A DNA stretch of 55,601 nt, filler included, from Bipalium vagum (lineage: Eukaryota): the NCBI GenBank assembly GCA_037834085.1. It is 3 parts of 3 records of this genome, joined end to end, with 100 filler letters (N's around TTAATTAATTAA, not from the genome) between each part and the next. Parts side by side here need not be neighbours in the genome. Positions count along the whole stretch, not along the records: positions 38,985 to 55,601 come from JBBMKC010102631.1; 2 more parts are not named here. One strand, written 5' to 3'. Positions within the stretch are counted from its first letter, which is position 1, and each line of letters begins with the position of its first letter. Shown piece by piece: positions 10,601 through 55,601 of the stretch. Below the pieces are notes generated by a model. That model was not told the origin of the DNA and did no database searches. It saw only the letters and a program-made list of their open reading frames with translations. Position numbers and translations under genes: made by a program.

Positions 10601-10650
10601 TTAATTCCCATCTGAAGCAGTCATTGTCCGATTTGCGAATTGAGTTGTGA
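1685..10650 (+). CDS. PLEKHA8: PH-domain + GLTP-domain lipid transfer protein (FAPP2/PLEKHA8-like), 9 coding exons
   Basis: Exons 1685-1724, 1770-1886, 2107-2274, 2327-2454, 2503-2714, 9466-9748, 9808-9941, 10221-10386, 10438-10650 all have GT-AG ends with matching phases. Translation [30 protein letters not shown]...[54 protein letters not shown] matches the FAPP PH domain. [14 protein letters not shown] and LNAACDTFL match the FAPP helical linker. [25 protein letters not shown]...AYNDTL..NW matches the GLTP fold. The start codon could lie slightly upstream. Confidence 0.9.
3800..4060 (-). mobile_element. Decayed mariner 5' fragment in the long PLEKHA8 intron
   Basis: Weak, stop-riddled resemblance to a mariner transposase N-terminal HTH region. 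Boundaries approximate. Confidence 0.3.
5134..5310. mobile_element. pogo/Tigger-type MITE, 177 bp
   Basis: TIRs CAGTGAAACCTGC.TAAAT.GAACA / TGTTCAATTTAAGCAGGTTTCACTG, flanked by a TA target duplication on both sides. Internal repeats of TGAACACCT. Confidence 0.92.
5520..5900 (+). mobile_element. Decayed mariner transposase fragment
   Basis: [11 protein letters not shown] (degenerate HDNARPH) and GWEVFPQ (GWEVLPH), with many stops and deletions. Confidence 0.55.
5940..6540 (-). mobile_element. Decayed mariner transposase fragment
   Basis: Minus strand reads [10 protein letters not shown], followed by a degenerate PDL.PxDYxLF-like stretch (...[11 protein letters not shown]). Confidence 0.6.
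8560..9275 (+). mobile_element. maT/DD37D-type Tc1/mariner remnant
   Basis: [13 protein letters not shown] at about 8941-8982 corresponds to WPPxSPDLNPLDYxxW. TIR-like end GAGTCACCCGATA at about 9265-9277. Confidence 0.65.
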
Positions 10651-13665: not shown

Positions 13666-14456
13666 TTAAATCTGTAAGCTATTAAGCTTATTCATCAGGT
13701 CGTCTAAATAAAAAACATCAACTTTTCTCAAGGAATGTAAAACCAACTTGTCTTTTGGTTGATCCAATTCAGCGATTGCATGTGAGCGTTCAAGATCCGA
13801 GTGACCTGAGCCATAACATCACCTCCAGAAGCGGACAATTCATTTGTATCCGAATCGTAGGCTTTGTTTTGAGTATTAATTCGGTCAACCATTTGTTTAA
13901 CATCTCCGGATATGTTTCCTAGCTCAGTCTGACAGTTTTCTGCCAACTGATAAATATTTTCTCGTGCCCTGTCAGGATACTGATAGCGAATGCTTAAAAT
14001 GGAGCTCTGTTGCAATTCTTTCTCAATACTTTCTGTGGCTGCTTCCAACTCATCTTGCTGATCTTCAAAAAGCTGCAGTTCTTGTTCCAAACGGGTCTGA
14101 TCCATGGTACATTGTTCGATTTTATCATGAAGACTAGCAATCTTATCAGCATTATTCATTAACTGACAGTCCCTCTCATTCATCTTACGTGCTTCATCTA
14201 CAAAGCAGCTTTCTAAATGGTCTAGTTCTCTAGTCCATTTATTGATCATTTCTTCCATTTGACTATATGTCATATCTTATATTATTAAAATATTTATTCT
14301 TTTTATTATTACTTGGTAAGTTATTAACTTGAGCCTGCACAGTAGGCTGGGTTGTTAAAGAATTCTGTGGTGAAGTTCCGAAAGGAAATTGCGCAGCATC
14401 TATTCAGATTCATTACTTAAATAAATGTGAAATCTTAAATGAAACCTACTAGACAT
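13666..14456 (-). CDS. NUP62: Nucleoporin Nup62/Nsp1 homologue: C-terminal coiled-coil with a very short N-terminus, 4 exons
   Basis: Exons 14456-14450, 14399-14313, 14275-13748, 13703-13666; introns of 50, 37 and 44 nt, all GT-AG phase 1. Protein MSNAAQFPFGTSPQ...MTYSQMEEMINKWTRELD...RLEQELQLFEDQQDELE...RENIYQLAE...QVTRILNAHMQSLNWINQKTNDLMNKLNSLQI*. INKW..EL and ILNAHM.SL.WI are Nsp1_C/Nup62 hallmarks. Confidence 0.88.
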
Positions 14457-15115: not shown

Positions 15116-16407
15116 TTAGGCATAATAAACGAGATTTGGCTTTTTTCGTGCTTGGACCTCGAAGATTGCATCCATAAAATCGTCGTGTTCTATTCGAGCA
15201 TTTCCTCTTCTTAAAGCAAGCATACCAGCTTCTACACAAACAGCTTTACACTGAGCTCCATTAAAATCATCTGTGCACCGAGCTAACTCTTCGAAATTCA
15301 CGGCTTTTGACAAGGTCATCTTCCTGGAATGAATTTGCATTATTCTTGCTCTTGCTTCTTCATTTGGAGTGGGAAATTCAATTTTTCTATCAATTCTTCC
15401 ACTTCTTAATAATGCTGGGTCCAATGAATCTACTCTATTTGTTGCAGCAATCACCTTTACTTGATCATTTGGTTGAAATCCATCTAGTTGATTAAGTAAT
15501 TCCAACATTGTACGTTGAACTTCTCGATCCCCAGATTTTTCACTATCGAATCTTTTAGTTCCTATAGCATCCAGTTCATCAATGAAAATAATAGTTGGTG
15601 CCTTCTCTTTTGCTAATTGAAATGCATCACGTACAAGCTTAGCTCCATCACCAATGTACATTTGAACAAGCTGTGGTCCTGCTAACTTAAGAAACGTAGC
15701 TTTTGTTTGAGCTGCGCATGCTCTAGCTAATAATGTTTTACCGGTACCTGGTGGCCCATACATTAAAACCCCTTTTGGCGGCTTAATGCCAATGGCTTCA
15801 AAACGATCTTTATGAGTAAATGGGAGAACAACTGACTCAATGAGTTCTTGAATTTGCTTGTCTAAACCTCCTATATCAGTGTAGACTTCAGATGGACGTT
15901 CATCGATTTCCATAGCTTTAACTCTTGAATCTATTTCGGAGGGCAATTTTTCCAAGATCAAAAATGAATCTTTATTTACTCCAACTATATCTCCAGGTTT
16001 TAAGTCTGAATGATGCACTAAGCCGATACGTGGGAGAAATATTGATTGTCTAGTACTGGTTTTTATGACCGCACATTTACCATTAATCCCTGCTTCCTCA
16101 TCCATAGTTCCTCCATCTTCTTCTTCGGGTTCCAAATCCAAAATTTCAGTAACAGTGGAAACCAAGTAAGGGGTGACCTTGTTCATTTTGATTTTGTCTT
16201 TATTTTCTTTTAGTTCAAACTCTTTTGCTTTAAATTCTGATTTTACTATTCTTAATTCGCTTCCCAGCAGACTTATTTCATTACTAATTAAATTAGATCT
16301 TGTAATCAGATCCTCAGTTGACATTTGAGCTACTTCATCCATAAAATCAGTCTAGTAAAAATAAATTTATTTAATACTAAAAATTAAGAAAATACATTTT
16401 CAGTCAT
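15116..16407 (-). CDS. PSMC3: 26S proteasome AAA-ATPase regulatory subunit 6A (Rpt5)
   Basis: Exon 1 16407-16396 (MTEN), a 44-nt intron, then exon 2 16351-15116. Contains [11 protein letters not shown], Walker [33 protein letters not shown], Walker [25 protein letters not shown] and the C-terminal HbYX tail NLVYYA. Confidence 0.97.
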
Positions 16408-22600: not shown

Positions 22601-22762
22601 TATTATTTAAAAATGTCTTTTAAAAAAATTTATAAATTATCTTTAATTATTTTATATTAATTAAAATTTAACTCTGGGTATATGTAAAATTTAATTGGGA
22701 TAAACAATCAATGCACAGTGAAGTTTTAATTTTAATTGTACTATCAGTTATGAAATACTTAC

Positions 22763-22996
22763 TTCAATCCAGATGCAAATTGGCATAACCAGAAGAGCCA
22801 GGCTTATGTCAGCTACGGCCAAGGAGAGGATAAAATAATTGGTGGTTGTCCTTAAACTGCGCTCTTTAATTATACTCAGCACCACGAGAGAATTTCCCAA
22901 AAGAGTAAAGAATGGAATTAAAAATAATGTCAAGTACCAATACTGTCTGGGCTGAATAGAATCAGGGGTACCCGTCCTCCAAGAATTATTATCCAT
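22763..22996 (-). CDS. First coding exon (N-terminus, TM1, TM2) of a D2-dopamine-like aminergic class A GPCR; downstream exons not found
   Basis: MDNNSW...QYWYLTLFLIPFFTLLGNSLVVLSIIKERSLRTTTNYFILSLAVADISLALLVMPICIWIE, then GTAAGT. GN in TM1, ERSL.T.TNYFI.SLAVAD and VMP are aminergic receptor motifs. A phase-0 intron after TM2 is as in D2-type genes. Confidence 0.85.
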
Positions 22997-24171
22997 TAAT
23001 TCCTCAACTAAATAAAGTTGAAAAAGATAATCAAATGAAATATTTTGTACTTCAAATATTTTAAAAAGAAATATTCGCAAGATATTCAGTTATTGATCAA
23101 GAGCACTGTTTATCATTGAAATGTTTTCGGTAGTTTTTTAACACCGAGAATATTAATTTAATTTCATGTAGCATAATATGCACCGAAGGTTCTTCGTTCA
23201 TTCTTAATTTTATTATCATGCATAAAATATCTTACATTAAGTTAAATTTTCAGGAAAAATGTTGAGTTTTTTTATCAGTTAGTTAACAAACTAATGATAA
23301 ATAATTATAAAAAATTCGGTTGAACTTCGATATCACTGCAGGTCTTTTGTCAAGGTTAATTTAATATTTATGAATTTAATATTTCTTATGTTATTCAATG
23401 TGTTTTAGAATTCAGATTTACAGAGTGATTTTTTAATCATCGGAGCGTTTTTTAGGATCTTAAATTTACTTACTTAAATTACTTAAATTTAATAAAAATA
23501 CTATATAGTTACAAAAGTAAAACTAAAATTAATATTTCTTTGAAATTAGATAATTCATTTAAAACAAAAACAAAATGTTGCAGCTATATCGAATGAAATC
23601 CAAAAGTACAAATGGAAATACCAGAAAAAGTGGAAAATTGATTATTTGTTCAATTTTGATAATCGCCTTTAAAAAATAAGTTATATCAGGAATTCCAGAT
23701 TTCTTTTTGATGAGAAATAATAAATATTAACTTAATTGAAGAAAATTTGTTACAGTAATCATTTTTATTTCGTTCGATAAAAATTCGATTATGACGAAAT
23801 CTGTTCATTTTAAATGGAAGGGGAAAAATTGCCAAATATCACCAAGCTCAGTTTTACAAAAAATGTTAAGATGATTAGACCATAATTAACACTTTGCAAT
23901 AACTAATTAAATTATGAAAAAATTGTTTATTAAGCCTCAATACTCAAAAATCAAATATAAAAAAATTTAATTAAATTTTCATTCATTTGTCATTCAGACC
24001 TAAATTAATAATAAATGTGACTTCAAAGGAAAACTGTAAATAGTTTCAGATAACATTTTTTAGATTTCGATTAATAATTATATACTATGACAAAACAAAT
24101 AATTTTAATTGGATAACATAGGCACAATTCTTAGATTTCGATTATGGCAGTGAGATTAATTGAAAATTAGT

Positions 24172-25289: not shown

Positions 25290-26340
25290 AAATCAATCAG
25301 AAAAATAAAATCCATTTTTATCCATCACTTTTTCCCATCTTTCAGGTAATTGACGAATTCCCGAACGATAGAATGATCTGGATTTCGAAACAAGGAAATT
25401 ATCCCGAAATTCTCGAATATCAGAAAATTTTTTTGTTACAATGTTTTGCTAAAAACCGTTGGATATGTGGAAACAGATAGTAATCTGTAGGAATCAGGTC
25501 CGGGGAATTAGCCGCATGAGAAAGTACTTCCCAATCTAATTGTGAGATTGCGTAAGCTCTGCCACATGTGGTCTGGCATTGTCAAGCAGTAGGATAATCT
25601 TATGCGATCCTTGGCTTGAAAAAGGTCTTTTTTCTTTATTTTTGCAACCAATTGCAACAACTACTGATGTAACGTTCTAAATTAATGGTTTTACAAATCT
25701 GGAGAAGATCATAATAAATTAAATCTATCATATCCGACCAGAAACAAATTAGTAGTTTTTTGCTGTGAATATATACTTTTGCGGTTTAAGTTGCTGGCAC
25801 GAATGAATGCGCTTTGGATTATCTTAGGCAATCCACTTTTCATCTTCAATGAAGATCTGCCATAAAAAATCTTTTTTTTCTTTGCCTAGTAAGAAGAGAC
25901 GTGCATGTTGTTAAACGACATGAAATGTTCATTTCTGAGAGTTCATATGGCAACGACTTTCAGCCTTCTGAATTTTTCCTAGTCTATTTAACTGCCAGCT
26001 AAAAGTTTCATGGTCGACTCCAAGCTGTTTCTCAAGTTCTTCTTGTGTTTGGGTCGTATTCTCGCAGAGTAGTTCTTCCAATCTCTCAGGGTGCAATATT
26101 CGTGGAGCACCGGTTTGTGGTACATTGTTTATAACAAAATTTCCGTCTTTAGATTGGCGATACCAATATTTACAAGTACCTTGCGAAATAAAACTATCTC
26201 CTAGAACAGAGCATGTGGTTTGAGATGATGCAAAAGCACTTTTTCCGTGCTGAAATTCATATTTCACAGTTTCGATAGTATATATTTTGGTCACTCAATT
26301 CTAAATCCAAAATTTTTTGATACTCTATAACAATTAAAGT
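25290..26340 (-). mobile_element. Near full-length decayed mariner (DD34D) transposase pseudogene
   Basis: N-terminal YEFQHGKSA...CKYWYRQSKDGNF...TQEELEKQLGVDHETFS, then [20 protein letters not shown] and PDLIPTDYYLF. Multiple stops and frameshifts. Confidence 0.85.
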
Positions 26341-35999: not shown

Positions 36000-38290
36000 T
36001 TGTTCTGTTAAAACAATATTGGCATGCTTTTGTAGAGAATGCTGTCTTTTCCTACGATTCCTCTTCCAATTCTACCTGGTAGTAGGCATTCCATAAATCA
36101 ATAGAGCTTAAATACCGAGGTCCCCCGAGTTTATTTATTCTTTTACGTTGGGTATTAGGAAAGCCTGTCTCTCAGTGATTGCGTTCAATCTTCTGAAGTT
36201 TAAACAGAGTCGAATATCCTTCTAATTCTTCTTCCAGACACAAATGATCCGCATATTAAAAGGAGAATTGCATCTTTTTATGATTTTATTTTTATACAGG
36301 TGTAAGTGTTTGGTTCGAATATAAAAATACTAACACTATTAATATAGGTTAGAAATGGACTCACCAACTACGCCAAAGGTAGTGTAACAAATGAGTGTTC
36401 TAGGGTACGAACTAAGTCTAATTAAATTATTTGAGATAACACGATTTTTGTTACAAAAATATATTTTGTAAAACAAATAAAAATCTTTCTTATCACAATT
36501 ATAATATTAATTATTAAGTCTTCTTGGTTTTACGATAACCGAAGAAACCCTGGTGTTACAAATACGTCTTCTATTTCCGAAGCGTATTTATTACCTTTTA
36601 CCAGCTTAACTTCTTGTTGCGAAGTTAATTGCGATTTGAATGAGAAAACCAAGAGCTTATATACTCCTGCTATTCACATTCCTGATCTCTTGATTAGTGG
36701 AAAATAAAACTTTCCATTAATAGAGTAATATGGGGTTTTTGCTATTTTAGGAAAGATCTTATAGTATAGAACTTACTAAATATAGCCTCCCATATATTAA
36801 TAATTTTTCATATTAATGTATTTTTAGTAAGTTTTATTTTCTTACTCATTATTACTCATTTTAATTAATTTTAATAATTTTGTGGATTAAGGTTTAATTA
36901 ACTTCAACCCACAATTTATATTATTATTTTTATAAAATATAAGCTGAAATATATAAAATAACATAGAGTCAAAATATAAAAGAAACAAAGCCTAACAAGG
37001 CTTTTTCATGCAAATTTTCACAATTAAAATGTTTATTAATTGTAGATTATGAGCTTTGGAGAATCATCCTCCATAAGCTCTTGTTCTGGCTGTAGCGACT
37101 TTGCGGGCTTTGAATTTGAATTGGTGGGTGCTTGGACCTCTTTTTCTATAAATCCAAACACAAGTTTGAAATAACCTTGTCTATTTTATTTTCCAAATGA
37201 GCCGATTGTCTCTATGATTTCATATTAGTGGGATCTTATGCTTCAATCTGATACTTCAACAGGTCCGTACATCCAAATATCTCATTTATCTGCCATAAAA
37301 ACATTCATATTGTTCCTTATAAACTCTAACAGCTTTTGGTGATTTGATATGTTCAATATTTCTCTGGCCTTTTAAAATCTTTCAGCATCTGATATTACTC
37401 TTCCAAACTTTTCCTCAATATTGCATACATCAAGTTTTATTTCTTGCAGGTGCCTTCATACCATTGTAAAGCCAATCCAAATTGTTGCTGTAGCTCCAAA
37501 CCTCTAATTATGTTGAATGTGATATGGTTCACTATCCTGAAAGTAATATTTCTCATTTTGTCACTGATCTCCATTTCTAATTCAGTTTTCCCTACAAATT
37601 CTAGCTTGCTCTCTTTTGCACATTTTAATTTTTCATTGCTTTTGATCATATCTGTATTTTGAAATCTGTAAAATAATTTTGCACTCGTCACATTTATTCT
37701 TGCTCCTGTGTATAGGAAACAATCAATTTCTATATCTTGTATCTTCAATGTGATACTTGGACGTCCTTGCAACTTATGGTAAGCTATATCTGTATTTTTC
37801 AATTCGCCTATCGACATTAACTTCACCGAGTTCACCTCTTCTGGAATTCTTTAAATTACTCGTATAATTTATATTGTTCTTCTTTAAAAATACTTTTTAT
37901 CGATTGCACTTCACAGTGGGACATTATATTCGAAAGTGCCCTTATTTACAATCTCATTTCTGTTGATCATAGACCGCACTTGTAGCTTTTCTATATTTCT
38001 TTCTTCTCTTGGTCGTATAATTAAGGCTGATTTATAGGTCTGGTATTGTCGTGCATTTATCTTATCTATCTCAGCTCTACACATCCATCTCTTTGATTTT
38101 CTCCTTTCACTTCCCGCAAGCATTACTTCAGTTTAACTCATTTGTACAGTGTACCAACAAAAGTTCTAACAATGATTCTTTATCCCACGTATCAGAGCAA
38201 TTTATTGTCCAGTTTTTCTACTTTTTTGAAATATTTTTCTTCTGATTCATTTGTCTAATTGTAAATCTTCAGCATCGAGCTTTTCATTTG
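36000..38290 (-). mobile_element. Decayed Ty3/gypsy element (gag-protease-RT N-terminal part)
   Basis: Protease GRPSITLKIQDIEIDCFLYTGARINV (LDTGA mutated). RT start KIIKRCNSPFN...KKN*KDIRLCLNFRRLNAITERQAFLIP at about 36130-36290. Confidence 0.85.
36301..36997. mobile_element. 697-bp TG...CA insertion (solo-LTR-like) interrupting the gypsy RT
   Basis: Starts TGTAAGTGTTTGGTTC and ends GAAACAAAGCCTAACA (imperfect terminal inverted repeat). AGG is duplicated at the flanks, and gypsy coding sequence resumes on both sides. Confidence 0.65.
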
Positions 38291-39109: not shown

Positions 39110-42100
39110 CGAATTTGTGTCTGACATATCGACCACTTTTTGAAACAGAATATTACTATTACAATATCTGTGCAATGAAAAGAGACTTTTGCAAGTAGTA
39201 ATGGTCATAATTTTATAAACGGGTCCGATTTCATTAATGCATTCATAGAAATGCTTCACTACTAAATAAAAAGTTCAATAAATAAATTATTTTTCAAATT
39301 TTTGACAAACTTTAAATAACAAAATTAAATATTTATCCAACTCTATTTATACTTTATTTTTTTGAGTATTTTTTTCATAATTTATAATTTTTATTTCACT
39401 TATAATTTTCTGAAGTATTTAAAATATAGGGTTTCAATTAAGTAGCTTTACAACTTTAAAGTTCAATAAATTTCTGAATATTTAGTTTTGTTTAACTAAA
39501 TTATTGTAACTTATAAGTTGACATAATATTTAAATTGTAATAAAATTTTTTTGATATTAGATTATACATCGATTGTCTGGCAGTGACAAACTTAAGGCTT
39601 AGGATCGATTCAGAATCGTTAAATTGAAATAGAAATTCAACTCACCATAACAATTCAAAGACTATGAAAACGGAAAAGGAATAATAATCCAAGAAGTAAA
39701 CCAACAATCAACGCAATATTTAATATAGATTCCTCAAGACTGGGAGCACCAAATTGTGGACGTCAACAAAGTAAGGATGGGGAAATTTTGGATAAAAAGA
39801 TTAATCAAATTTTGTAAGAAGAGCTCAGCGCATCTCTTAAACGACTATCCAATGAATATAATGTTTCATATGAAACAGTCCGTAAAGTGGTGAAGACATT
39901 GAAATTTAAACCGTACAAACCCAGATAGGTTCAGTTGTTGACAGAAAATGATTTTGACAGACGAATGGAGCTTTCTTGCGAATTCTTCACTCAAATTGAC
40001 AAAGATCTAAGAATAAATCTTTGTATTCTTATTCTGGGGAACAAGAAGACTAAATTTCATATCGTTGGTTTATTGGTAATTAGAAAATCTTCTGACAATG
40101 GAGAGGTCGGTCAATTTATTATGGTCTGCCCCTCTTTGTATGCTGGCGACGATTGAACCATAATTCTTCTTCGAAAATATGTGACAGAGACTAATACTAC
40201 TGATCAAAATTATTAGGCAGATACTCGCATTTTTAAATATAACATAAACACTTTGTTTATAACAAATGTTTTACAGTTAATTTATTTAAAAAATTTAACA
40301 ACCCTTGCTATATTTATTCGTACTAAGAAAAAATATTAATTTTATATTCTATATAACATTCATCAAAGTAGTCTCTATGAATTTGAATAACATATAAATC
40401 TCTTCGGCATACGATTAAGCAATTGTGCTTTTAGTGTCTTTTATTACTTGGATATGTTGAAACTTATTTTTGCATGCTTTTAATCAATTACAACCTTTTC
40501 AAAGCTCTAACAGGACATTCCTAAACATTGGTCTTAAGTAGTTCGAGAATGTCTGTCAAAAATTTCTTGGCAGAAAAGGAGCTATTGATTGACCACCAAG
40601 GTCAGTATCACAAAAGGTAAATTTTTTCCTTAAGAACTGGATTTTAACTGATTATGTATACAATGGAAATCACAAACTGTTTATGATAAATGTTATTTCT
40701 AAAGAATAATTACTCAAATATAATTACACTAGGTCATCCCAAAAAACAGTTGCCATAACCTTGCCAACTGACTGCTGTGATTTTGGCCGATGTAGAGCAC
40801 TGGAGCACCTTCGCATTGCTTTGACTGTCGTGATGATTCGGGTGTGCGATTATGTATCCACATTTCATCAACGGTTATATAACGACCCAAAAATTCATTT
40901 AGATTTTCCATTAAAAATGCTTAAGCACAGCTTTGAATCATTAACTCGCTGCTTTTGATCAATTATCAAATTGCGCGGCACTCATTTTGCGACAAGCTTT
41001 TTCATCTCCAATTCATTGTGAATTATTTTCCAAAGACTGATATTTTTGCGATGTTAGATTACTCGCGGATTTTGATTTTTCGATCATTCTTAAGAGCTTC
41101 ATTGATTTTTTGAATGTTCTCTGACACAGCCACTTCGATTGGACGACCGCTTCGTTCAACATCATTTGTGCTTATACCACCGAGTTTAAAGTCAGCGAAC
41201 CAATTTTTTACCGTTGAATATGAAAAATCAGAATTACCATAATATTTATCCAGTTTTTCTTTTGCTTCTTCTGGTGTTTTCTTTCGTAAAAAATAATGCT
41301 TAATCAATATGAGGAATTCATCTTTTTCCATCTAGAACATCAAAACTGATTTTAATGTTAGTGGATAATTTTAAAAAGATGATAGATGGCATAAAAATTT
41401 GGAATTTCATATTTTAAAATAATGCTTTTTTCACTATTTTGGTAATTTTTTACTATTAGCGTTTTTTCATGTTCGGGTCAGGGACTTTTCGAACGACCTA
41501 GTATATCGACTTTTATATTTAATTTTTAGATAATTATATTTTGAAAGTTATTCATTTGAAATTGATTTTACAAAAAATACTGAGACCATATAATAATTAT
41601 CTTGACAATGAATAAAACTTACAAGTTGCCAAACAATCAATAATAACAATATTTTGAATATTGACTTCATCAATAGAACAAGGAATCAATAAATCTAAAT
41701 TGTCTAGACATATTACAGACGGGGATCGCCATAGGCTTTCAACCAAAATGTCCAATATATTACGTTTTACTGAATCAGGCTGCTTTCCTAAAAGTTGGAA
41801 AATCATTATTGGTTTTTATTTGAAATCGTATTAAATCCGTTAAAGAATACAGCGGAAAGAATGATACAAATACCTTTTAAACATTATTGATTTAAAAATT
41901 ATAATAAATAATTCGCTAAATAAAAAATTATTATTACATTATAAATTTATATTTATAAAATATTTTGTTTCCATAAATTAAAAAATACCTATTAAATCTC
42001 TACAATCAATAACAGATGTAAAACATTGAAAAGTTTCATCTACAGATAGTAAAAAGCAAATCTTTTCACAAAAAATTGATTTTCCAATTCCCGATGGTCC

Positions 42101-45159: not shown

Positions 45160-45989
45160 TTTTAGTAATATTAAAACAAACAGATGTTCTAAATTGATTC
45201 AAATCTTTTATTAAATATTATATTTAAGCTCACTTTCATTCAAAACATTATTCTCATTACTTCAATAATGTATAAAATAATATTTAAAAATTTTCTATAA
45301 ACTAACAATTTTAAAATCATTAAATTATGCATAATATGGATAAATGAAAATATATATATGAAATATAATATTTGAACGAATAACTATTTCTTCTATTTAG
45401 TAGAAAAGAAAACACGAAACAAAAATGATATTAAAAAGATAAAAGATAAAATAATAAAAATAAATAAGGGCAAAAAATATTACTTGTAATCATACTACTT
45501 TAAAAAAGTGCAGGAAAAATTCTACTTTAAAATTACTTTAAAACAACAGGATACTCTTAAAAAGTGATTTATAGATAACAATCACAATTATAAATTAAAG
45601 GTGTAAAGAAAAACTGTAATTTCATGATATTTTAAAAATTTTGAAAAATTTTACAGATTTATGAGGTAGTTTTAAAAATAATTTCTATATTCAAGATTAC
45701 CCTGTCAAACTCAAAAAGTAGTATATACGAAAGAAAGACATTTCTTCTAAATTGTTCAAGAAGATTATTGCTCGAAAAGATTATTATTGTTTTAAAGAGG
45801 CTCCTAACATTGATTGAGACTTTATTTTCAAATTGTTATAAAAATTATTGTTTGTTTTTTAGAAGCTTCCGAATAGTGAAGAAAACTAGTCTATGATGAC
45901 AGAACCCAGAACGTACTTTTTGCTTAATTTTTTATTTTTTGGACTTTATTTTGTTACGATATTATTTTACTATGGACACTATCGTAACA

Positions 45990-46392
45990 CTTAGCTCGCA
46001 AAGTTACTGACCCCTTCACTTTTGCCTATACGTGTACGCAAATGAATGAATCAAACAACTACGAACAACATTTATTTGCTAAAATAACAATAACAAAATG
46101 TTTTAAATGATCAATAAAATGTTTGCAATCAATCACAATAAAAATCAACGTCAATAATAATCAATTAAACTAAAATCAAATAATTAAATATAAATATCAA
46201 TTAATTTAAAAAGAAAAAAAGACAAAATCAAGTTATTCTCACCACTTGTGACGACAGGTCCAAAGGATGGTTACACAAAGTGTACCCCTTTCGTACCCAC
46301 ATTTTTTCTTCACTCATTCGCATGCGTGCCTCCCGGCACATACTCATTCGTTCGTCAAAAAAGTGTTTACAAACGAATTACACTTTGTGTCG
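45990..46392 (-). mobile_element. LTR end, primer-binding site and leader of an LTR retrotransposon
   Basis: Minus strand ...GTCGTCACA(46247)-AG-TGGTGAGAAT: a CA terminus, a 2-nt spacer and a TGG-initiated PBS resembling tRNA-Ala-type TGGTGGAGAAT. Confidence 0.55.
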
Positions 46393-47720
46393 TATAAAAA
46401 TATTAGGTTGGTTAATTCAAAATAAATTACCAGTTGAAAAAATTAGTTCTGGTAGTAAAATCACATACTTGCGAATAAAACAATTTTATATAAGATTTGT
46501 AGATTCAATAAATTTTACTTTATGTCCATTAAAAGCTTTTCCAGAAATATTTGGTTTTAAAGGTTCTAAAGGATATTTTCCACATTATTTCAATACAACA
46601 AAAAATCAAAATTACATTGGTAAATATCCAGATTTAGAATTTTATGGATATAGTTATATGAGTGATAATAAAAAAAATTATTAAAACAATGACATGGTGA
46701 AAAAATACAAAATAATGAAATTTTTAATTTTCAAATTCAAAAGTTTTATTATTGTTTAATAGATTTTATTATTTTAACCAATGGTTGTTTAATTTTTAGA
46801 AAATTATTTTTAAATATAAATATATCAGAAACCCAAAAATTAAATATGGATCCTTTTCAATATGACAATTGCTCAAATTTGTACAAAAATATTTATGTCC
46901 ATGATTGATAATGAAGAAATTGGAAATCCAAGATTAAGTAATTTTGAAAATATATATTCAGATAAATGTGTTCATTGGTTGGAATATTTAAGTAAAATAA
47001 AAAAATATAAATATTCAACATGCAAAAAGAGGAGGAGAAAAAACTATGAGGTAATAAAAAACATACAAAGCTGATGGATGATCAAACTTCCAAAACTTAT
47101 TGTATTTATGAATTCAATGGTTGCTATTTTCATGGTTGTTTAAAATTTTATAAAAAGAGGAAATTTGTAAAAAAGGAAATAAAACAATGGAATTTTTAAA
47201 TAATCGATAAAAAGCTTTAAGAAAATCCTGATTTTAAAATTTTTAAAATTTATCCAGAGTTATCTCAACTAAAACCTAAAGAAGAATTTTATGGAGGAAG
47301 AACCGAACCTATACTATTATATCATAAAAGTGAAACTGAAAAAATTAAATATGTAGATTTTGTTTCATTGTATCCAACTGTAAATAAATATGATGAATAT
47401 CCAGTTGGTCATCCTATAAAAATATTTAATATTTCAACAGAAGAATATTTAGAATAAAATTGGGGTCACTTTGGAATTATAAAATGTAAAATTTTATAAC
47501 CAAGAAATTTACATTTACCAGTATTACCTTATAAACAAGAAATAGGAAATGCTCACAAGTTAGTATTTGGATTATGTGAAACATGTATGGAAAAAATAAA
47601 TATTAATTGTAATCACTATGTTAAAAATAGTTGTTGTCCAAATATTGAAATTCAGGATCGAACGAAAGGTTCTAACAATGAAGTTATGCACAAAATAAAT
47701 AGATGTAAAATTTTTTTAAA
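46393..47720 (+). pseudogene. Polinton/Maverick/adintovirus protein-primed DNA polymerase B, central part with Vsr-like nuclease insert
   Basis: IRFVDSINFTLCPLKAFPEIFGF..SKGYFPHYFN, MDPFQY.TIA, WLEY...IQHA..GGE, KADG...IYEFNGCYFHGC, FYGGRTE, YVDFVSLYP, YPVGHP, LPVLP and LVFGLCETC. Several stops and frameshifts. Confidence 0.92.
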
Positions 47721-47999
47721 TAATAAATATATAATTTTATAAGCTTCAGTATCATTATGATTAAAGGTTTATTAGTTAATTATTCCGTCTAAATTATGAA
47801 TTTTATTAAAAGAAGAATTTACAAGCTTTAAAAGTTACCAATTGAAACTTATAGCGAGATTACAATATTAATGATTGAGGTTATGATTATTTAATATTAA
47901 TAATAATAATGGTCTATTATGTATATTTTAAAACCCCGAGAAATAAATAATACACAATAATTGTAATGATGTAAATAAAAGCCTAAATTTAATGAATAT

Positions 48000-48392
48000 T
48001 AATATAATAATAAAAAAAATAATAGTGACCTTATTATAGTATATATAATAATAGAGTTAAAGACACTATTAAATAGACAGGTTATCCCCCTCATCCTACA
48101 TGTTGTAGGTAAATATGACATGATTGCGCGATAACAGACGCAATCATATCGGTTGATAACCTATGAATGTCCTCTCTTTGAAGCCAAGTCGACGGAGTAT
48201 GTTATCATTTTCTGTATCCCAGGAGCCGAGGCACCCGAGATTAATCGTCCAGATATCAATTTTGTTGCGGGTTGCAAGTACCATTTGTTGAGCGAGTTCC
48301 TTATATTTCTTCTGGTTTCTCTTTCTACCTTCAGAAAGTTCAAGCATTCGTCATATGGCACTTTGAGGTCGATGAGACTAATAACTTCTTCT
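48000..48392 (-). mobile_element. 3' fragment of an R2/NeSL/Utopia-type non-LTR retrotransposon (restriction-like endonuclease)
   Basis: EVISLIDLKVPYDEC, frameshift, then RNQKKYKELAQQM...IWTINLGCLGSWDTENDNILRRLG. This corresponds to the RLE IDxxxP..KxxKY..GxLGSW motifs. Confidence 0.8.
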
Positions 48393-50176
48393 TAGCTCTT
48401 CACTGCTTGATGTTAGTGATTGCCAAATGCTTTCCTCTTCCGCTGGTGTGTCCAACGCAATCGGCTCTATCAATACTATAATGTCTTCTTCTGCTATCAT
48501 GTCCTCCCATCTGGGTGTTGGTGTTACTTCATCTTTTCTCTTTGCCTTTTGATGACATGGTGATCCATGGATTGTCACCTTCCTCGTGAAATCCGTGGTT
48601 ACGTTCTTAACCTCTTGATGGCTTTTTACGGGTTTTGGACGTTTCTTATTATATTCTTCCCTCGTGATGACTCTAGGCTCGTTGTCACTGTCATCTAGAT
48701 CTATTGGTGGCGATTTATACAATTCCCTAAATTTCATAAAATTTTCTTCCATTCTCTTAGCCTCGTTCGTTCTTCTTCACTATTTTCCTCCAACTCGCCT
48801 TCTAATCCACCGTAGAAGTGTCCATTCTTTGATTTTCAGTTTCTACTTCTGCCGGTGAGTCTGGTATTTCAATGACTTCCACCATGACTAATGGTTTGGC
48901 TGCCGGGTTTTCTCTTTTTACTGATACCTGTCTTTCCTTCCGCATATTAACTATCTCACCTATCTTTTCGACTTTCTTTGTTGGCTGTTCTTCCTTTTTC
49001 TTTGTCAATTCTACCTTCTTCGTAGCCTCTGTCATCTTTTCCACTTCTCTTTCTTGTCCGTACATTGATCTTTCCATGTCTTCAGTACACCTGGCTTCTA
49101 CACTGTTCCAAACCTTCATCATAAGTTCAATATCCCTTGTTCTATTTTCCATTTTTCTGTTTCACAATAGAGCACTAACATGTGTAGTGAAGCGGTTCCA
49201 TCTCGTCTTGGTTAAAATAGTCAATCTTTTCTTATTAGTGGTAACGTGGCGAGATCCCAGTAGCCACGAATCCAACTCCTATCAACTCTTATTGCTTCTA
49301 ATGCTCTTTTTACTTCATAACCTATCACTATTTTTCCTTCGAGTAACCTGGATAATTCTAATTTCGCTGCCAGTTTGTCAACTAGCCCTTCTACCATCTC
49401 TGATGTAATACCATGGTCGATTGTCCTATAATCTGCTACATGCTCTGGATGTTATTATGCTCCTAAAGAAAAAGTTTCCTTTAGTATCAGACAGAACAGT
49501 TCCTAAGGGGACCATTCTTGTCATGAACATTTGCACGTCCAAATGACAATCTGTCGATTATCTGGATGTTTCAGCCAGCTTCTGTCGACATATGGTTTTC
49601 ATGCTTGCCAATCTTCCTCTGGAATAGGATCCCATTCTGCCTGCTTTTTCTTAGCTGCTCTCCATTCTTCTCGGTGTTAGCTTAACACTTCAATTATTAT
49701 GGGTCGAGTGGTTAGTAGATAACACTCTAAATCCACTTCTTCTTTTATTTGTAGGGATACTTGAGGTTCTGGCATAGATTCTTCGGCATATATCTCATTG
49801 TTTCTTCTTTCGATCACCAATGCCCTACCAGTACTCAGAAAATGAATTTCTTGCCCCCAGCGACTAAGGTAAGCAAGATTGACTGCGGAGACTGGTTGCC
49901 CTAGACAAATCATTTGCCTATAATCAGTTTTTCTTCCTTTTATTTTATTGGGGATTGTTTCTGGTTCTGTAAACCATTTCATGGCTCCCTTATTCTGTCT
50001 GAGCCATGTCGTAATAACGTCTATTTCTTTTAGGTTGGCTAGACAGCTTTTCTTAGGTAAGGTCAGGGGTTTATTCATGTCCATATTCTCCTCTAAATAA
50101 ATGATTTTCTTTTCTTCGCGGGAAATGAAAGAAGGGTACGGAATTTCGGCACGCTTCCATCATTGATTTGTTTTTG
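48393..50176 (-). pseudogene. Long accessory ORF of unknown function downstream of the gypsy PPT (decayed, roughly 590 codons)
   Basis: ORF pieces 49677-50084, 48802-49152 and 48378-48752 share the element's strand and purine-rich codon style. The reading starts right after a TTATTGTTTCAG acceptor (AG at 50178-50177). Lys/Glu-rich C-terminal half. No family recognised. Confidence 0.6.
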
Positions 50177-50265
50177 CTGAAACAATAATAAACATTAACA
50201 AATCAATCAATATTTTTGCATTACTAATATTCGTATGCAACAGGAGCTTTCTTTTTGGGGTGATA

Positions 50266-50282
50266 CGTCACACCCCCTTTTT
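50266..50282 (-). promoter_or_regulatory. Polypurine tract and start of the gypsy 3' LTR
   Basis: Minus strand: pyrimidine-rich run, then AAAAAGGGGG (50282-50273), immediately followed by TGTGACG (50272). Confidence 0.75.
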
Positions 50283-50465
50283 ATCAAAGAAAAGAAAAGA
50301 GAAGAAAAAGAAGAAAAAGTTAATTTTTTTAATTAATATATAAAAATTTAATTTTAATTTTTTTACACTAACTCAAATATGATACACACATACATACTAT
50401 AACAATCACAAAGCATTCCATCAAACATTAAGCAAAACATTCCTCTGTTCTGCGAAAACTCGAAG

Positions 50466-51530
50466 TTAAGTTTCTCCATGATTTGATAACGGTTGTATTT
50501 CAGTTGGGAGTTCCAAACTCGATAATTTTTTCATTTTCTTCTTCATTACTACTCTTCGTTGTCTTCTCCAGCGTTTTCTAATGTGGCAACACAGTGTTCC
50601 TGTAGACATGATTAACAATGCTGATCCACAAGCCCCTACGGCCATAACCCTATTTGTCATTCTCTTAACTGCTTCCAACTTTCGTTTTCTCGATCCTGGT
50701 TTTCCTTTCCTACTTCTCTTTGTGGAAACTATTGGTACCTGTCTCCTCACTTTCCAATCAATTCCCTCTTTTATTGGATTAATTTTAACAAAACGTCTAG
50801 TGCTTGATCCCGTTGTTGCTTCTACTGCCATGGTTTGCACATTTCCTGTGCTTGTTCTTCTTAACGTTGTGGTTTCTGTTCTCCGTTCTGGTGTCATTTC
50901 TCCACTCGCGCTCTTCATCGTTTTACTAGTACTCATGGTCATCCTCGGTGTAGTTGTGACCTTGCAACTTCGTTTCATTTCTCCACTTGTACTTGTTGTC
51001 CGTATCATAGCGGGTTTGAGTCCACGCCTGCTCGGTCCCTTTTCTTTGTGCGGTATATCTGTCTTTTCTTTGATGTTCGTTTGATTTTCCTTTGGGCATT
51101 TGATTTTCCTTGCTGAATCTTCTTCTACCTCTTCTTCCAAATTGTCCAAGTCCTCGTATTGACAGTCTTTAGCAGTTAACCATAAGACGGTGCTAAAGCT
51201 CTTCTGTGCTGTTAGAGCTTTCGATCCACAATTCGGAGTATATGATGGCTCTTCATCTATTTGTACAATCCCAAGAGTGTAAGTGGTATTGAAGCAAATT
51301 ATTAATATTTCTACTATTCTATACCCATGCTAATTTCGATTTCTAGGGCCCAAAAAGATAACTTCGAACTGCGCAATGTCGGTCTTGTTTACATGCTCCT
51401 TCACTCTGATGTAAATATTATCTTTGACACTCTATGGTTATTGTCTCCCCCGCTGTTCCAAAAATCATCATCATTATTAAGGGTAGCCAAAACCATCTTG
51501 GTGGTTTAACATTTGCTACCAGGTTCCTCT
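50466..51530 (-). pseudogene. env-position gene of the gypsy element: predicted type I membrane glycoprotein with mucin-like stalk
   Basis: Signal-like RWFWLPLIMMMIFGTAG-ETITIEC, then a roughly 100-aa domain with 4 Cys and NKT/NTT sequons (1 frameshift, 1 stop). This is followed by a Thr/Ser-rich region (TTSTSGE..VTTTPRMTMSTSKT..TETTTLRRTST), a TM-like VMAVGACGSALLIMSTGTLCCHI and a basic stop-transfer RKRWRRQRR. Confidence 0.65.
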
Positions 51531-54500
51531 CTGGATCGTAACGGGTATCGTTCCTTGGTCTGTTCCACCATTTTTTTGCATCGATTGGCGTGGACTATAA
51601 ATGATGATCCTGATTTCCGAGTGTTCACTAGAGATAGACTAGTTGGTGTCACATTTTCTACGGTGTATGGACCTTTAAATGTTCTCTAAAGTTTCGGCGT
51701 TTTTCCTCTTATTGGTTCTGGTGTCTCGACCATTACTTTATCACCAATTCTGAAATTATGCTCCTTCGCCGTCTTGTCATAACGTTCCTCGTACTTCTCC
51801 TGGCCATATTTTATATTAAGTCCCGCTTTCTCCCACGCCTCTTGAAGTCTCTCCTGCATAATGACTTTATAATCTTCTTCTTCTACATATTTTGATATCG
51901 GTTTCACATACTCAAGATCAATGGGCATGTTGTTATTTCTTAAATACATCAGGTAAAATTTTGTTTTTCCTGTTGCTGGATGGACTGCGTTCCTATACGC
52001 AAACAAATATGAGGATATATGAACGTTCCAATCCGTCTGGTGTTTGTTTGTATATGACGATAACATTTTAAGCAACGTACCATTAAATCGTTCTACTAAG
52101 CCATCTGTTTGTGGCCTGTATGGTGATATATTGAGCTTCAAGATAGCAAACAATTCGCAAATTTCCTTTATTAATTCATTCATAAAATTCTTTCCTCTGT
52201 CCGTTAAAAGTTTTCTCGGGGCTCCATATCTGAAAACAATGTCTTCCACAAAGATCTATAGTTGCTGCTTTCTGATTTTTCATCGCATAAGCCTCTGGCC
52301 ATTTCGTAAAATATTCGCAGAGAACTATTATGAATCTATTCCCCGATATTGTTTCCGGCAATGCCCCAACGACGTTCATTGCTCCATTTCTATCGGTGTT
52401 GCAGGTGTTGAAATTGGCTTTAATGGAACTTTTGTTTTAGCTCCCGTTCCTCTGCGTGTCTGACAAATCTTGCAGGATTGACAAAAATTCCTAATATCTA
52501 GCTCCATTTTAGGCCAAAGATATGTTCGTGATATTCTTGATAAAGTTTTTCTAGCTGACAAATGGCCTCCTAACGCTCCATCGTGGTACTGCATCATTAT
52601 TGGTTCTCGGTCCTTACTATGTACCACGTAACATGGCTCTTGATTTTTACTAAAATATAATATGCATTTCTTTATTTTAAATTTGTCCTTTAACTTATCC
52701 CAATTCTTTTCCCAATCTTCAGGAATATTTCCTTCCATGCACCTCTTGATTAGTTCTATTTCTTCCTCTGCCTTCTGATCGTTTTCTCTAGAGTCCACCA
52801 TATTCACTCTTCTGATTGTTGCTAACACAGTTTCATCTTCTTTGCCAAATTGATCATCTTCTCTGGATAATCCCCTTTTTTCATTCGGGATAAAGTATCG
52901 GTGTTTTCAGTGGCCTCTCCTTTTCGATATCGAATTTCTATATTGTATTTCTGTAATATTAAGGCCCATCGGATAAGTCTACTTGCCTTATCCCTGTTTT
53001 TCAATAGCCATTGTAAGGAACTGTGGTCTCTAAATAAGATAGTTTTCTGTCCCCACAATTAGTGTCTGAACTTCTTCACTGCAAACTATCGCCAAGGCTT
53101 CTTTCTCGATCGTCGCGTAATTAAGCTCGTGCTTCTTCAATCCTCTACTGGCGTAGGCTATGACATGATCTTTTTCACCTTCTGCCTGTTGCGCTAGCAC
53201 TGCTCCAACTGCATAACCACTAGCGTCCGTCATTAGCAGAAAAGGTTTCGTCATGTCTGGATACCGCAATACTGGTTCTCGTATTAGCTGTTCTTTCAAT
53301 TGTTCAAAAGCCTTCTGTTGTTCTTCTCCCCAAATGAATTTATCAGTTTGTTTCTCTATTATATTCACTAACTTCTCTCGCTTGGCTTTTCTCTTCATTG
53401 CTTTCGTCTCTCCTTTCAACAAATCATTCAAGGGTGTCGCTATTTTGGCATAATTCTTAATGGATCTTCTATAATATCCTGCCAATCCTAGACATTCTCT
53501 AACTTCCCTCGTATTTCGAGGTATCGCAAATTTCTCTACTTTCTTCACATTTTCCGGATCTGGTCTAATTCCTGATCCTGACACTATATGACCCACGTAT
53601 TTTACTTCACTTTTTGCCCACTCACATTTGGTGGGTTTCACTTTCAAACCTGCGACTTTAAGTCTTTGCAATACTGCCGCTATGTCCTTTATGTGCTCGT
53701 CCTCGTTAATGGAAAATATAATAATATCGTCCAAATAGACCATAGCGTGTTCCACATCCATCAAAATCAAATTCATTACTCGCTGAAACGTTGCCGGAGC
53801 TCCCGTTAATCCAAATGGGATTTTATTGTACTGATACAATCCTTTACTAGTCACAAAAGTCGTGATTTCTTTACTTTCTCGATTCATGGCTACTTGATTG
53901 TATCCTTTTCGTAGGTCCCTCACAGTGAATATCGTGGATCTCTTAATCTTCTCGAACATCATTTCGATGACCGGTATAGGACATATATCTTTCCTTGTTA
54001 CTTCGTTCACCTTCCTGTAGTCGATACACATTCGAATAGAACCATCTTTTTTCTTCACCATCACTATTGGCGATGCCCACGGTGATGAACTTGGTTCTAT
54101 GGTTCCAACTTTTAACATGTCTGTTATCTGCTGATTGATTTCCTCCTCTAACGCATATGGTTGTTTATATGCTCTTAGCTTGATTGGGGTTGACTCAATA
54201 AGAATAATTTTGTGTTTGAGTCTGAGTACATCCCAAATCATAGTCATCTTTGGCAAATACCTTGTCATATTTAAAAATTACTTTTTATAGATTTTCCCGT
54301 CAAATTTGGACTCACGATCACCGTCGGCTTGTACTTCTTAATTGCGTTTGGTTTTATCACATTAATTGAATCTACATAAGACTCCTCGGTTAATGGTTAT
54401 AGCTGTCCAATTCGCGTCTTTGCGTACAAATGTTTTTCCTTAACATCGAAATTTACAACTCAATGGTATTTTTCCGTCTTTAATTTCTGTAACCTCGTCC

Positions 54501-54610
54501 ATTGCACCGTGTAGCCATCGTAATTCGATACTGGGATTGAAATTCATTGCTCCTTCACCCTGCACTCCAGCTGTTGCAATAGCAAATTTTCATTTAATAT
54601 AATGTCTTTG
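51506..54610 (-). mobile_element. Ty3/gypsy pol (RT-RNase H-integrase), lightly decayed
   Basis: SSPWASPIVMVKKKDGSIRMCIDYRKVN, PFGL..APATFQR, YLDD, RNase H TDAS.YAVGAVL, HHCC (HDGALGGH..CKIC), LLTDRG..F, PQTDGLVERFN, a GPY motif and terminal RYPLRSR. Order RT-RH-IN. Confidence 0.97.
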
Positions 54611-54612
54611 TA

Positions 54613-55430
54613 CGAGGGTAGGATAAAAGTTCGCTGCCTAACAAAGAAATAACAAACTTATTGACAAAATTATATTTATTTTTTAACATAGTCTCCTTGC
54701 AATTCAATACATTTATTCCAACGATATTCAAGTCTTTTAATATCATCAGCATAATATGATTTATCAATGGCTTTCAAAATATGATTCAGTTTCACATTGA
54801 CCCTCCACATTTGATCTGAATCGTTTTCTTGCAAGTGACTTCTTCAAGTTTGAAAACAAGAAAAAATCACTGGGAGCCAAACCTGGAGAGTACGTCGGAT
54901 GAGGAAGCAATTCATATCGAAGTTCATGGAGTTTAGCTTGTGCAACTGTTGAAGAATGAGCTGGTGCGTTGTCATGATGAAAAAGAACCTTTTTTCTTGC
55001 TAAATGAGGACGCTTATTCTTGATCTCGTTATTCAATTTGCTCAATAATGAAGCATAATATACTCCTGTAATGGTTTTCCCTTTCTCTAGATTATCAATC
55101 AATATTATGTCTTTTGCATCCCAAAAAACGGTTGCCATGACTTTTCCTGCTGAAGGAACAACTTTTGCTTTTTTTGGTGCACCTGAACCTGCTTCTACCC
55201 ATTGCTTTGACTGCATTTGTTTCTGGGGTATGATGGTGTACCCATGTTTCATCAACAGTAACGAATCGCCGTAGAAATTCATTTGGATTCGACTGAAACA
55301 TCTGTAAGCATTGAATTGACAGATTCATTCTTTGACGCCTTTGATCAATGGTTAGCAAACGTGGCACTCATCTTGCAGATAGTTTTTTCATATTTAAATG
55401 GTTGTGTAGTATGAAATTTGTAGATAATGA
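54613..55430 (-). mobile_element. mariner (DD34D) transposon inserted at TA upstream of the gypsy RT, 5'-truncated
   Basis: TIR CGAGGGTAGGATAAAAGTTCG after TA at 54611-54612. VPRLLT, FVTVDETWVH, GKVMATVFWD, HHDNAPAH and YSPGLAPSDFFLF, with a frameshift. Confidence 0.93.
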
Positions 55431-55601
55431 AATTGCCAACTTTAATTGTTGTTTATTTGTTATCGGCTTGATATTTTACCATTCTGTTTTTTGCGTTGGT
55501 AAATTATATATCTGTCTTGTTTGTAAATATCATTTTAATCTGATAAAGTATAAATCAATTGTTTAAATTAATCATTTTTATTAAAAATGGATATATCGGA
55601 A

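Follow-up and report, generated by a model that had tools for sequence, protein, structure and literature searches.

Accessory genes coded in the U3 part of the LTR are known from retroviruses, as with HIV nef, MMTV sag and foamy virus bel. Outside retroviruses, the bdelloid LTR retrotransposons Juno and Vesta, as well as Terminons, carry an ORF3 that, according to the passages on it in PMC5408684, stands in the place of env, is typically spliced and codes for an RNase D-like DEDDy exonuclease with intact catalytic residues, its function being given as untested. The same passages present Maelstrom and EXD1 as inactive DEDD derivatives that retain RNA binding in the piRNA pathway (PMC5408684). 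Among Ty3/gypsy elements, an orchid lineage has an extra ORF for an AlkB 2-ODD, described as an active m6A demethylase (PMC9289625). The giant planarian gypsy Burro/GYPSM1 is described with a very long polyprotein that includes env-like and ankyrin parts, with accessory ORFs, a SUMO/ubiquitin-like motif, a dUTPase and an env of the fusion-glycoprotein type placed between gag and pol, and the sections consulted of that description mention no exonuclease ORF (PMC6431247). The main text of an eLife survey of env-carrying gypsies does not contain the words "fibronectin," "exonuclease," or "accessory." Our literature searches brought up no gypsy whose accessory parts include ISG20/DEDDh, REL or FN3, none with an ORF coded in the LTR, and no FN3-like domain at the env position; Repbase and supplements may contain such elements.

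The window, by which we mean the whole stretch of 55,601 nt of Bipalium vagum DNA that was analyzed, holds a gypsy copy whose pol, env-position segment and accessory reading all lie on the minus strand. Our reading of the locus as a whole, to which we give a probability of about 0.55, is that it contains a native pseudo-exonuclease gene, likely with a barrel domain and expressed from spliced RNA, whose product would serve as an RNA decoy or shield, and that this gene probably sits in the U3 part of an enlarged LTR. The pol remnant (51509 to 54611), with a frame broken by stops and frameshifts, retains the end of the protease along with RT, RNase H, and integrase in the order PR-RT-RH-IN required of a Ty3/gypsy LTR retrotransposon, with Pfam matches to RVT_1 (E = 1.6e-34), RT_RNaseH_2 (8.3e-32), Integrase_H2C2 (2.3e-20) and rve. 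On the 5' side it is interrupted by a mariner (Pfam Transposase_1, 4e-23, at 54767 to 55324). Mariner remnants cover 54612 to 55601 (the one that interrupts pol), 25929 to 26294 and about 40700 to 41500, and a second decayed gypsy remnant with protease and RT pieces was found at 36007 to 37850 (minus strand). Host genes are present at 15116 to 16351, 13728 to 14276, 9416 to 10650 and 22748 to 23089, namely a 411-codon open frame (proteasome AAA ATPase), Nsp1/Nup62-like and GLTP-like genes, and an amine-receptor-like GPCR exon; the host DNA is that of an animal and rich in AT. Since Rfam gave only two chance-level matches, we consider the window free of ribozymes and tRNAs.

The closest RT proteins are 52 to 60% identical to that of the window (alignment A1) and belong to pol-env fusions. 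The RT-protein alignment retrieved 80 metagenome loci and 18 loci from genome collections, while viral contigs gave no RT relative. A quick RT tree was built from 68 rows, comprising the window, 43 of the 96 usable loci and 24 of the 120 proteins and leaving aside named gypsy clades. In it, the window was sister to locus L005 (SH-aLRT 99) within a 14-row clade that also includes L001 to L004 and L081 (support 99). Each of L001 to L005, all metagenome elements, has one long polyprotein and, behind it, one to three long ORFs in the sense direction; exonuclease ORFs make up seven of these, one or two per element. The earlier note had proposed an accessory gene of a distinct retroelement lineage and had named an RT phylogeny as a check on it; the tree bears this out, as the same type of gene occurs in the same place in five relatives of the RT clade. 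The distance from the env stop to the first accessory ATG is 167 to 335 nt in these five and 303 nt in the window, and L081, which ends inside env, is uninformative about accessory ORFs. The window frames or the degenerate exonuclease P0006 had matched L001 to L003 prior to any profile building. Of the 10 accessory ORFs put to Pfam, RNase_T matched 5, with 3 of these matches passing the cut-off, and the L004 ORF matched ISG20L2 (7e-12) and ISG20 (3e-10). A profile of the exonuclease ORFs matched the window and 5 of the 98 loci, the latter being those whose ORFs had served to train it; 11 loci extend 4 kb or more past RT, and the ORF was missing from the other 6 of these. This is a real, clade-wide accessory gene, and the stretch in the window is almost certainly a decayed copy of the one native to its element. 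The window copy itself is dead.

Behind integrase, positions 50466 to 51500 translate into an env-position segment with a signal-peptide-like stretch, a Thr-rich stalk and a transmembrane-like stretch. Its counterpart in the relatives is the in-frame C terminus of the gag-pol polyprotein; the segment matched no Pfam family and gave no hhalign match to the ectodomains of the relatives. In L001 to L005, L081, P0026, P0030, P0033, and P0036, as in the window, the last part of the polyprotein is a type I membrane protein whose beta-rich domains are repeated. A profile of this membrane protein had seven weak PDB matches (E of 0.2 to 0.8), all to Dscam or IL-2 receptor beta chains; we read the matches as FN3 domains and the protein as FN3-like. 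Several other features of the relatives were recorded. Between integrase and the membrane segment, L001 (3400 to 6660) and L002 (3900 to 7106) have an additional aspartic protease as well as ankyrin repeats (compare P0111). Further accessory ORFs, each with an acceptor-like AG ahead of it, were found in L002 (10906 to 11517), L003 (12229 to 12663) and L004 (11375 to 12040), one with a weak ubiquitin/SUMO-like match (E of 0.04) and two coiled-coil-like. Behind its accessory ORF, L005 has a run of similar stem-loops with CA-rich loops (5720 to 5975; z of -5.8 for 5850 to 5975), followed by a 23-nt tandem repeat. L081 lies in a record titled as a Turicibacter MAG and is likely eukaryotic contamination there.

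All the sequence motifs from which the accessory gene had been claimed were found again. A pyrimidine (U-rich) run leads into the polypurine tract AAAAAGGGGG (together 50273 to 50330, the tract itself at 50282 to 50273), directly followed by TGTGACG (50272 to 50266), and the splice-acceptor-like site TTATTGTTTCAG lies at 50188 to 50177, with ATGATG 13 nt downstream. In this decayed copy the first long reading, which begins at 50159 (minus strand) with WKRAEIPYPS, uses another frame than that ATGATG. From the acceptor to a stop near 48381 the reading measures 598 codons with many stops and frame changes, in agreement with the roughly 590 codons estimated before. Coding homology runs beyond the start coordinate given earlier, down to 48094. 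Pfam on three frames and on 10 pieces of the reading returned no convincing family, and word-index homologue searches with the stop-read frame gave no match. The statement that no family could be recognized does not hold, as the reading has a DEDDh exonuclease domain and ends in a restriction-like endonuclease (REL) tail. Two other identities were tried and rejected, namely the gag of a second element (the homology is to an exonuclease) and a whole non-LTR element (there is no RT).

The exonuclease domain is of the ISG20/REX4-like DEDDh group and occupies 49100 to 49560 in two frames. With stops read as X, main-frame residues 285 to 359 match human ISG20 (phmmer, PDB 1wlj, E = 2.5e-6), the profile of the relatives matches at 49224 to 49448 (E = 2.9e-12), and a frame-aware alignment places the homology at 49551 to 49134. 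A HMMER search of 1.84 billion proteins had four matches with E of 0.001 or less, the degenerate exonuclease P0006, which maps to 49412 to 49224, and three REL domains. By eye, at most two of the five positions of the catalytic D-E-D-H-D set are kept in the window, both acidic, and the copy is, as judged from its sequence, of the degenerate type. The set is full in 4 of the 7 relative ORFs and degenerate in the other 3 and in P0006; since those three are still open frames of 460 to 615 codons, dead versions appear to persist as open frames. An RNase D-like DEDDy type does not fit, given that the intact relatives have His at ExoIII. Between the exonuclease and the end of the reading (48381 to 49100) there is a charged, low-complexity tail, the end of which resembles by eye the C terminus that the degenerate ORFs have in L001 and L002.

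The fold search by AlphaFold and Foldseek that had been suggested earlier was done on the L004 relative, for which a cupin/AlkB-like barrel followed by an ISG20-like exonuclease is predicted (pLDDT of 71, from an alignment of 9). The best folds for the model were ISG20 (Z of 20.7, rmsd of 2.1, 159 aligned), Pan2 and the small-RNA nuclease SDN1 (Z of 15.3), above RNase D (Z of 10.4). Residues of about 7 to 140 resemble ALKBH6 (Z of 10.0, rmsd of 5.4, 135 aligned), Ofd2 (Z of 9.9) and cupins (Z of 9.8 to 10.6), and Foldseek likewise gave cupin and viral AlkB-type matches, consistent with a double-stranded beta-helix fold as in AlkB/2OG-Fe(II) oxygenases. By eye, alignment A3 has no conserved HxD, the start of the AlkB HxD...H metal site. 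The likely counterpart in the window is the N-terminal domain at 49680 to 50159, and the tie is weak, consisting of an IPN-x-K motif at 49955 to 49938 shared with the relatives (1 of 2,000 shuffles as good) and an hhalign probability of 17% against their barrel domain. A single-sequence fold of the window piece had a pLDDT of 31, and its 160 amino acids matched nothing in the ESM Atlas or the metagenome scan. On balance, the barrel predicted for L004 may be extended, weakly, to the window copy.

The acceptor motif alone is not rare (5 TTTYAG sites in 6.5 kb of the element). An acceptor beside the start codon recurs among the relatives: of the 10 accessory ORF starts tested, 8 have a YAG ending no more than 6 nt from the ATG, four of them directly at it, and from this we infer that the gene is likely made from a spliced or trans-spliced message. 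A donor near the 5' end of the element, or a trans-spliced leader, would probably join the acceptor at 50177.

The position of the gene relative to the LTR is less straightforward. Of the 23 purine runs of at least 10 nt with at least 4 G listed between 45.5 and 55.6 kb, only the one at 50282 to 50273 is followed by TGT, and 50272 alone among seven PPT-like candidates can be paired with an inverted partner of 7 nt, the CGTCACA that ends at 46247. These termini delimit a candidate LTR of 4,026 nt (46247 to 50272, TGTGACG ... CGTCACA). TGGTG stands two bases beyond 46247, within the PBS-like motif TGGTGAGAATAAC (46232 to 46244, 2 nt past the candidate end), so that the candidate LTR has a PPT ahead of it and a PBS-like motif behind it, the signals that in Ty3/gypsy elements precede the 3' LTR and follow the 5' LTR; no tRNA to serve as primer was found in a search of the window. 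Terminus pairing plus TGG was equalled in 7 of 2,000 shuffles, a figure that overstates the pairing because termini of the TGT-N-ACG kind are generic, with 11 occurrences in the window and two more lying no further than 300 nt from 46247. Adjoining the candidate end, in an R/U5-like position, there is a long hairpin (46273 to 46389); the region from 46240 to 46389 folds at -50.8 kcal/mol (z of -4.3, 0 of 200 shuffles as good). A 16-nt LTR-end pattern had 13 exact matches in viral contigs, which we took as chance. The window contains one candidate LTR and no LTR pair, the 5' part of the element being cut by the mariner, and the 4,026-nt span also takes in the REL tail and antisense debris of a Maverick/Polinton-type DNA polymerase B gene (46395 to 47620, plus strand; Pfam DNA_pol_B_2, E = 4.3e-11 and 2.1e-4). 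Beyond the PBS-like motif, 45952 to 46245 contains a 255-nt AT-rich leader ending at a 38-nt unit that has inverted TGTTACGA on either side. Very high contig depth was seen in the leader bin and the 5' part of env (42,481 and 46,308 in run X1), and the leader may be a high-copy non-autonomous derivative.

We lean slightly toward placing the gene within the 3' LTR of the window copy, in its U3 part. If the LTR does start at 50272, a boundary shift in the lineage explains this most simply, as the gene lies at the usual distance from env; a PPT-att cassette arising in the spacer between env and the ORF would, somewhat better than evenly likely, have started plus-strand synthesis upstream of the gene, so that the LTR engulfed it. 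Short of even odds, and still the strongest alternative, is that the same native gene is internal, between env and a true 3' LTR that starts further down (48079) or has been lost, the tract at 50273 being a PPT that is internal or due to chance, with a hairpin, and another insertion being the source of the LTR end at 46247. This is the layout of all five relatives: a PPT plus TG between env and the exonuclease ORF was found in none of them, and PPT-like tracts in L004 (about 15238, then TGTG) and L005 (5789, then TT) lie only downstream of the gene. It also agrees with the generic LTR termini close by and with a second PPT-like tract, GGATGAGGGGGATAACC (48080 to 48096), before TGTCT and where the G+C content, 0.33 to 0.47 from 50300 to 48100 as in pol, falls to about 0.2. 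The region is multicopy throughout by contig depth in two runs, a measure on contigs that gives no copy number, and with the same caveat the X1 depth over the ORF body (2,476 to 3,150) is not above, let alone double, that of pol (3,234 to 7,017), which weakly favors an internal gene. However, 48079 begins with TGTCTAT and has an inverted partner of no more than 4 nt, whereas 50272 is a typical TGTGACG right behind a G5 tract, with its 7-nt partner and PBS-like motif.

The REL tail (48094 to 48376, three frames) is the C-terminal part of a NeSL/Utopia-type endonuclease. Its phmmer matches among the 1.84e9 proteins, P0004 (3.8e-5), P0005 (2.6e-4) and P0007 (5.3e-4), map to three frames at 48376 to 48097, one of them being a domain of an RT-bearing dragonfly protein. 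It is further supported by tblastn (1e-13 and 4e-14) and by a frame-aware score of 184 to 185 against at most 43 in 15 shuffles, and a piece of it fell in unnamed, mostly mollusc clusters of the ESM Atlas at 0.94. The motifs described for R2 in the sections used of PMC4838377 (second acidic residue, K..KY and G.W) are present together with a C-terminal helix, as in R2, NeSL, and Utopia, but the tail has only about 280 nt and lacks RT, CCHC, RH and a clear PD; the RT, CCHC, and RH parts of P0004 and P0007 found no match upstream. By eye, a decayed PD strand is possible at 48432 to 48412. Because those upstream parts are missing, the REL occurs in none of the 98 relative loci, and NeSL-related LIN families are reported in planaria (PMC4640811, from the parts drawn on), the tail is probably a 5'-truncated insertion of a NeSL-clade non-LTR element at the natural end of the gene, outside the accessory protein. 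It is unlikely that the REL is instead a true C-terminal domain, giving a barrel, a dead exonuclease and an endonuclease-like domain captured from a non-LTR element. Such a fusion would account for the shared strand without a gap, the frame that the main REL piece has in common with the charged tail, and a coding-like G+C maintained to the REL stop, with both runs covering the REL. It conflicts with the absence from all 98 loci, with the unrecovered PD and RH motifs, and with the REL starting directly behind the stretch that by eye resembles the natural end of the L001 and L002 degenerate ORFs; the higher depth over the REL (4,380 to 5,348, against 2,476 to 3,150 in the ORF body) also points, weakly, to free non-LTR copies. 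Very improbable is a chimera in which, after deletion or nesting, the short LTR start of one copy came to lie against the accessory gene of another. The many fragments heaped up in the region (mariner, polB and REL, along with further LTR-like ends) would fit it, but the distance from gene to env is that of the relatives and the spacer runs unbroken into the acceptor region.

As for function, we tentatively suggest that the barrel plus pseudo-exonuclease binds RNA ends, and in doing so might shield element RNA or soak up silencing small RNAs. With equal caution, the active paralogues of the relatives might trim RNA 3' ends while the dead form binds such ends. This decoy model draws on the inactive DEDD proteins that act in the piRNA pathway and on the fold match of the L004 model to SDN1. 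A more specific version is distinctly unlikely: a gypsy lineage with the LTR boundary shifted upstream of the gene would have a U3-coded suppressor of piRNA silencing made of an AlkB-like barrel, a dead exonuclease and the REL, in complex, envelope-bearing retroelements with an FN3-like surface protein.

Like rotifer ORF3, the gene is an additional ORF behind pol that codes for a 3'-5' DEDD exonuclease (PMC5408684), and presumably it is spliced as well. It differs in being an ISG20/REX4-like DEDDh enzyme behind an env-like segment, with a predicted N-terminal barrel, in versions that appear either active or dead, with one element having as many as two, and possibly inside the LTR. The orchid Ty3/gypsy has in common an extra ORF with an AlkB-like fold (PMC9289625), but the barrel here is predicted in L004, is fused to an exonuclease and by eye shows no HxD. 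With Burro the clade shares the very long polyprotein with env-like and ankyrin parts and the accessory ORFs (PMC6431247), the ankyrins here being in L001, L002 and P0111 and the weak SUMO/ubiquitin-like match in L002. In contrast to the fusion env of Burro, the membrane protein here looks FN3-like, follows integrase (the gag side lies outside the view) and ends the polyprotein, a separation from Burro made on the published description. The picture is of large gypsy elements that form a clade and are complex in the manner of retroviruses, with a membrane protein fused to pol and several accessory genes that are likely spliced, apparently including paired active and dead ISG20-like exonucleases. 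The intact versions in L001 to L005 make the idea of retroelement RNases or RNA decoys against host small-RNA defense testable, a question that is open for the rotifer ORF3s as well. If the LTR reading holds, the gene would share with nef, sag, and bel a sense ORF reaching into U3 and spliced expression, while those are unrelated proteins of vertebrate Retroviridae and not of Ty3/gypsy elements; the clade would then record an LTR taking in a gene, a possible route by which U3-coded accessory genes originate.
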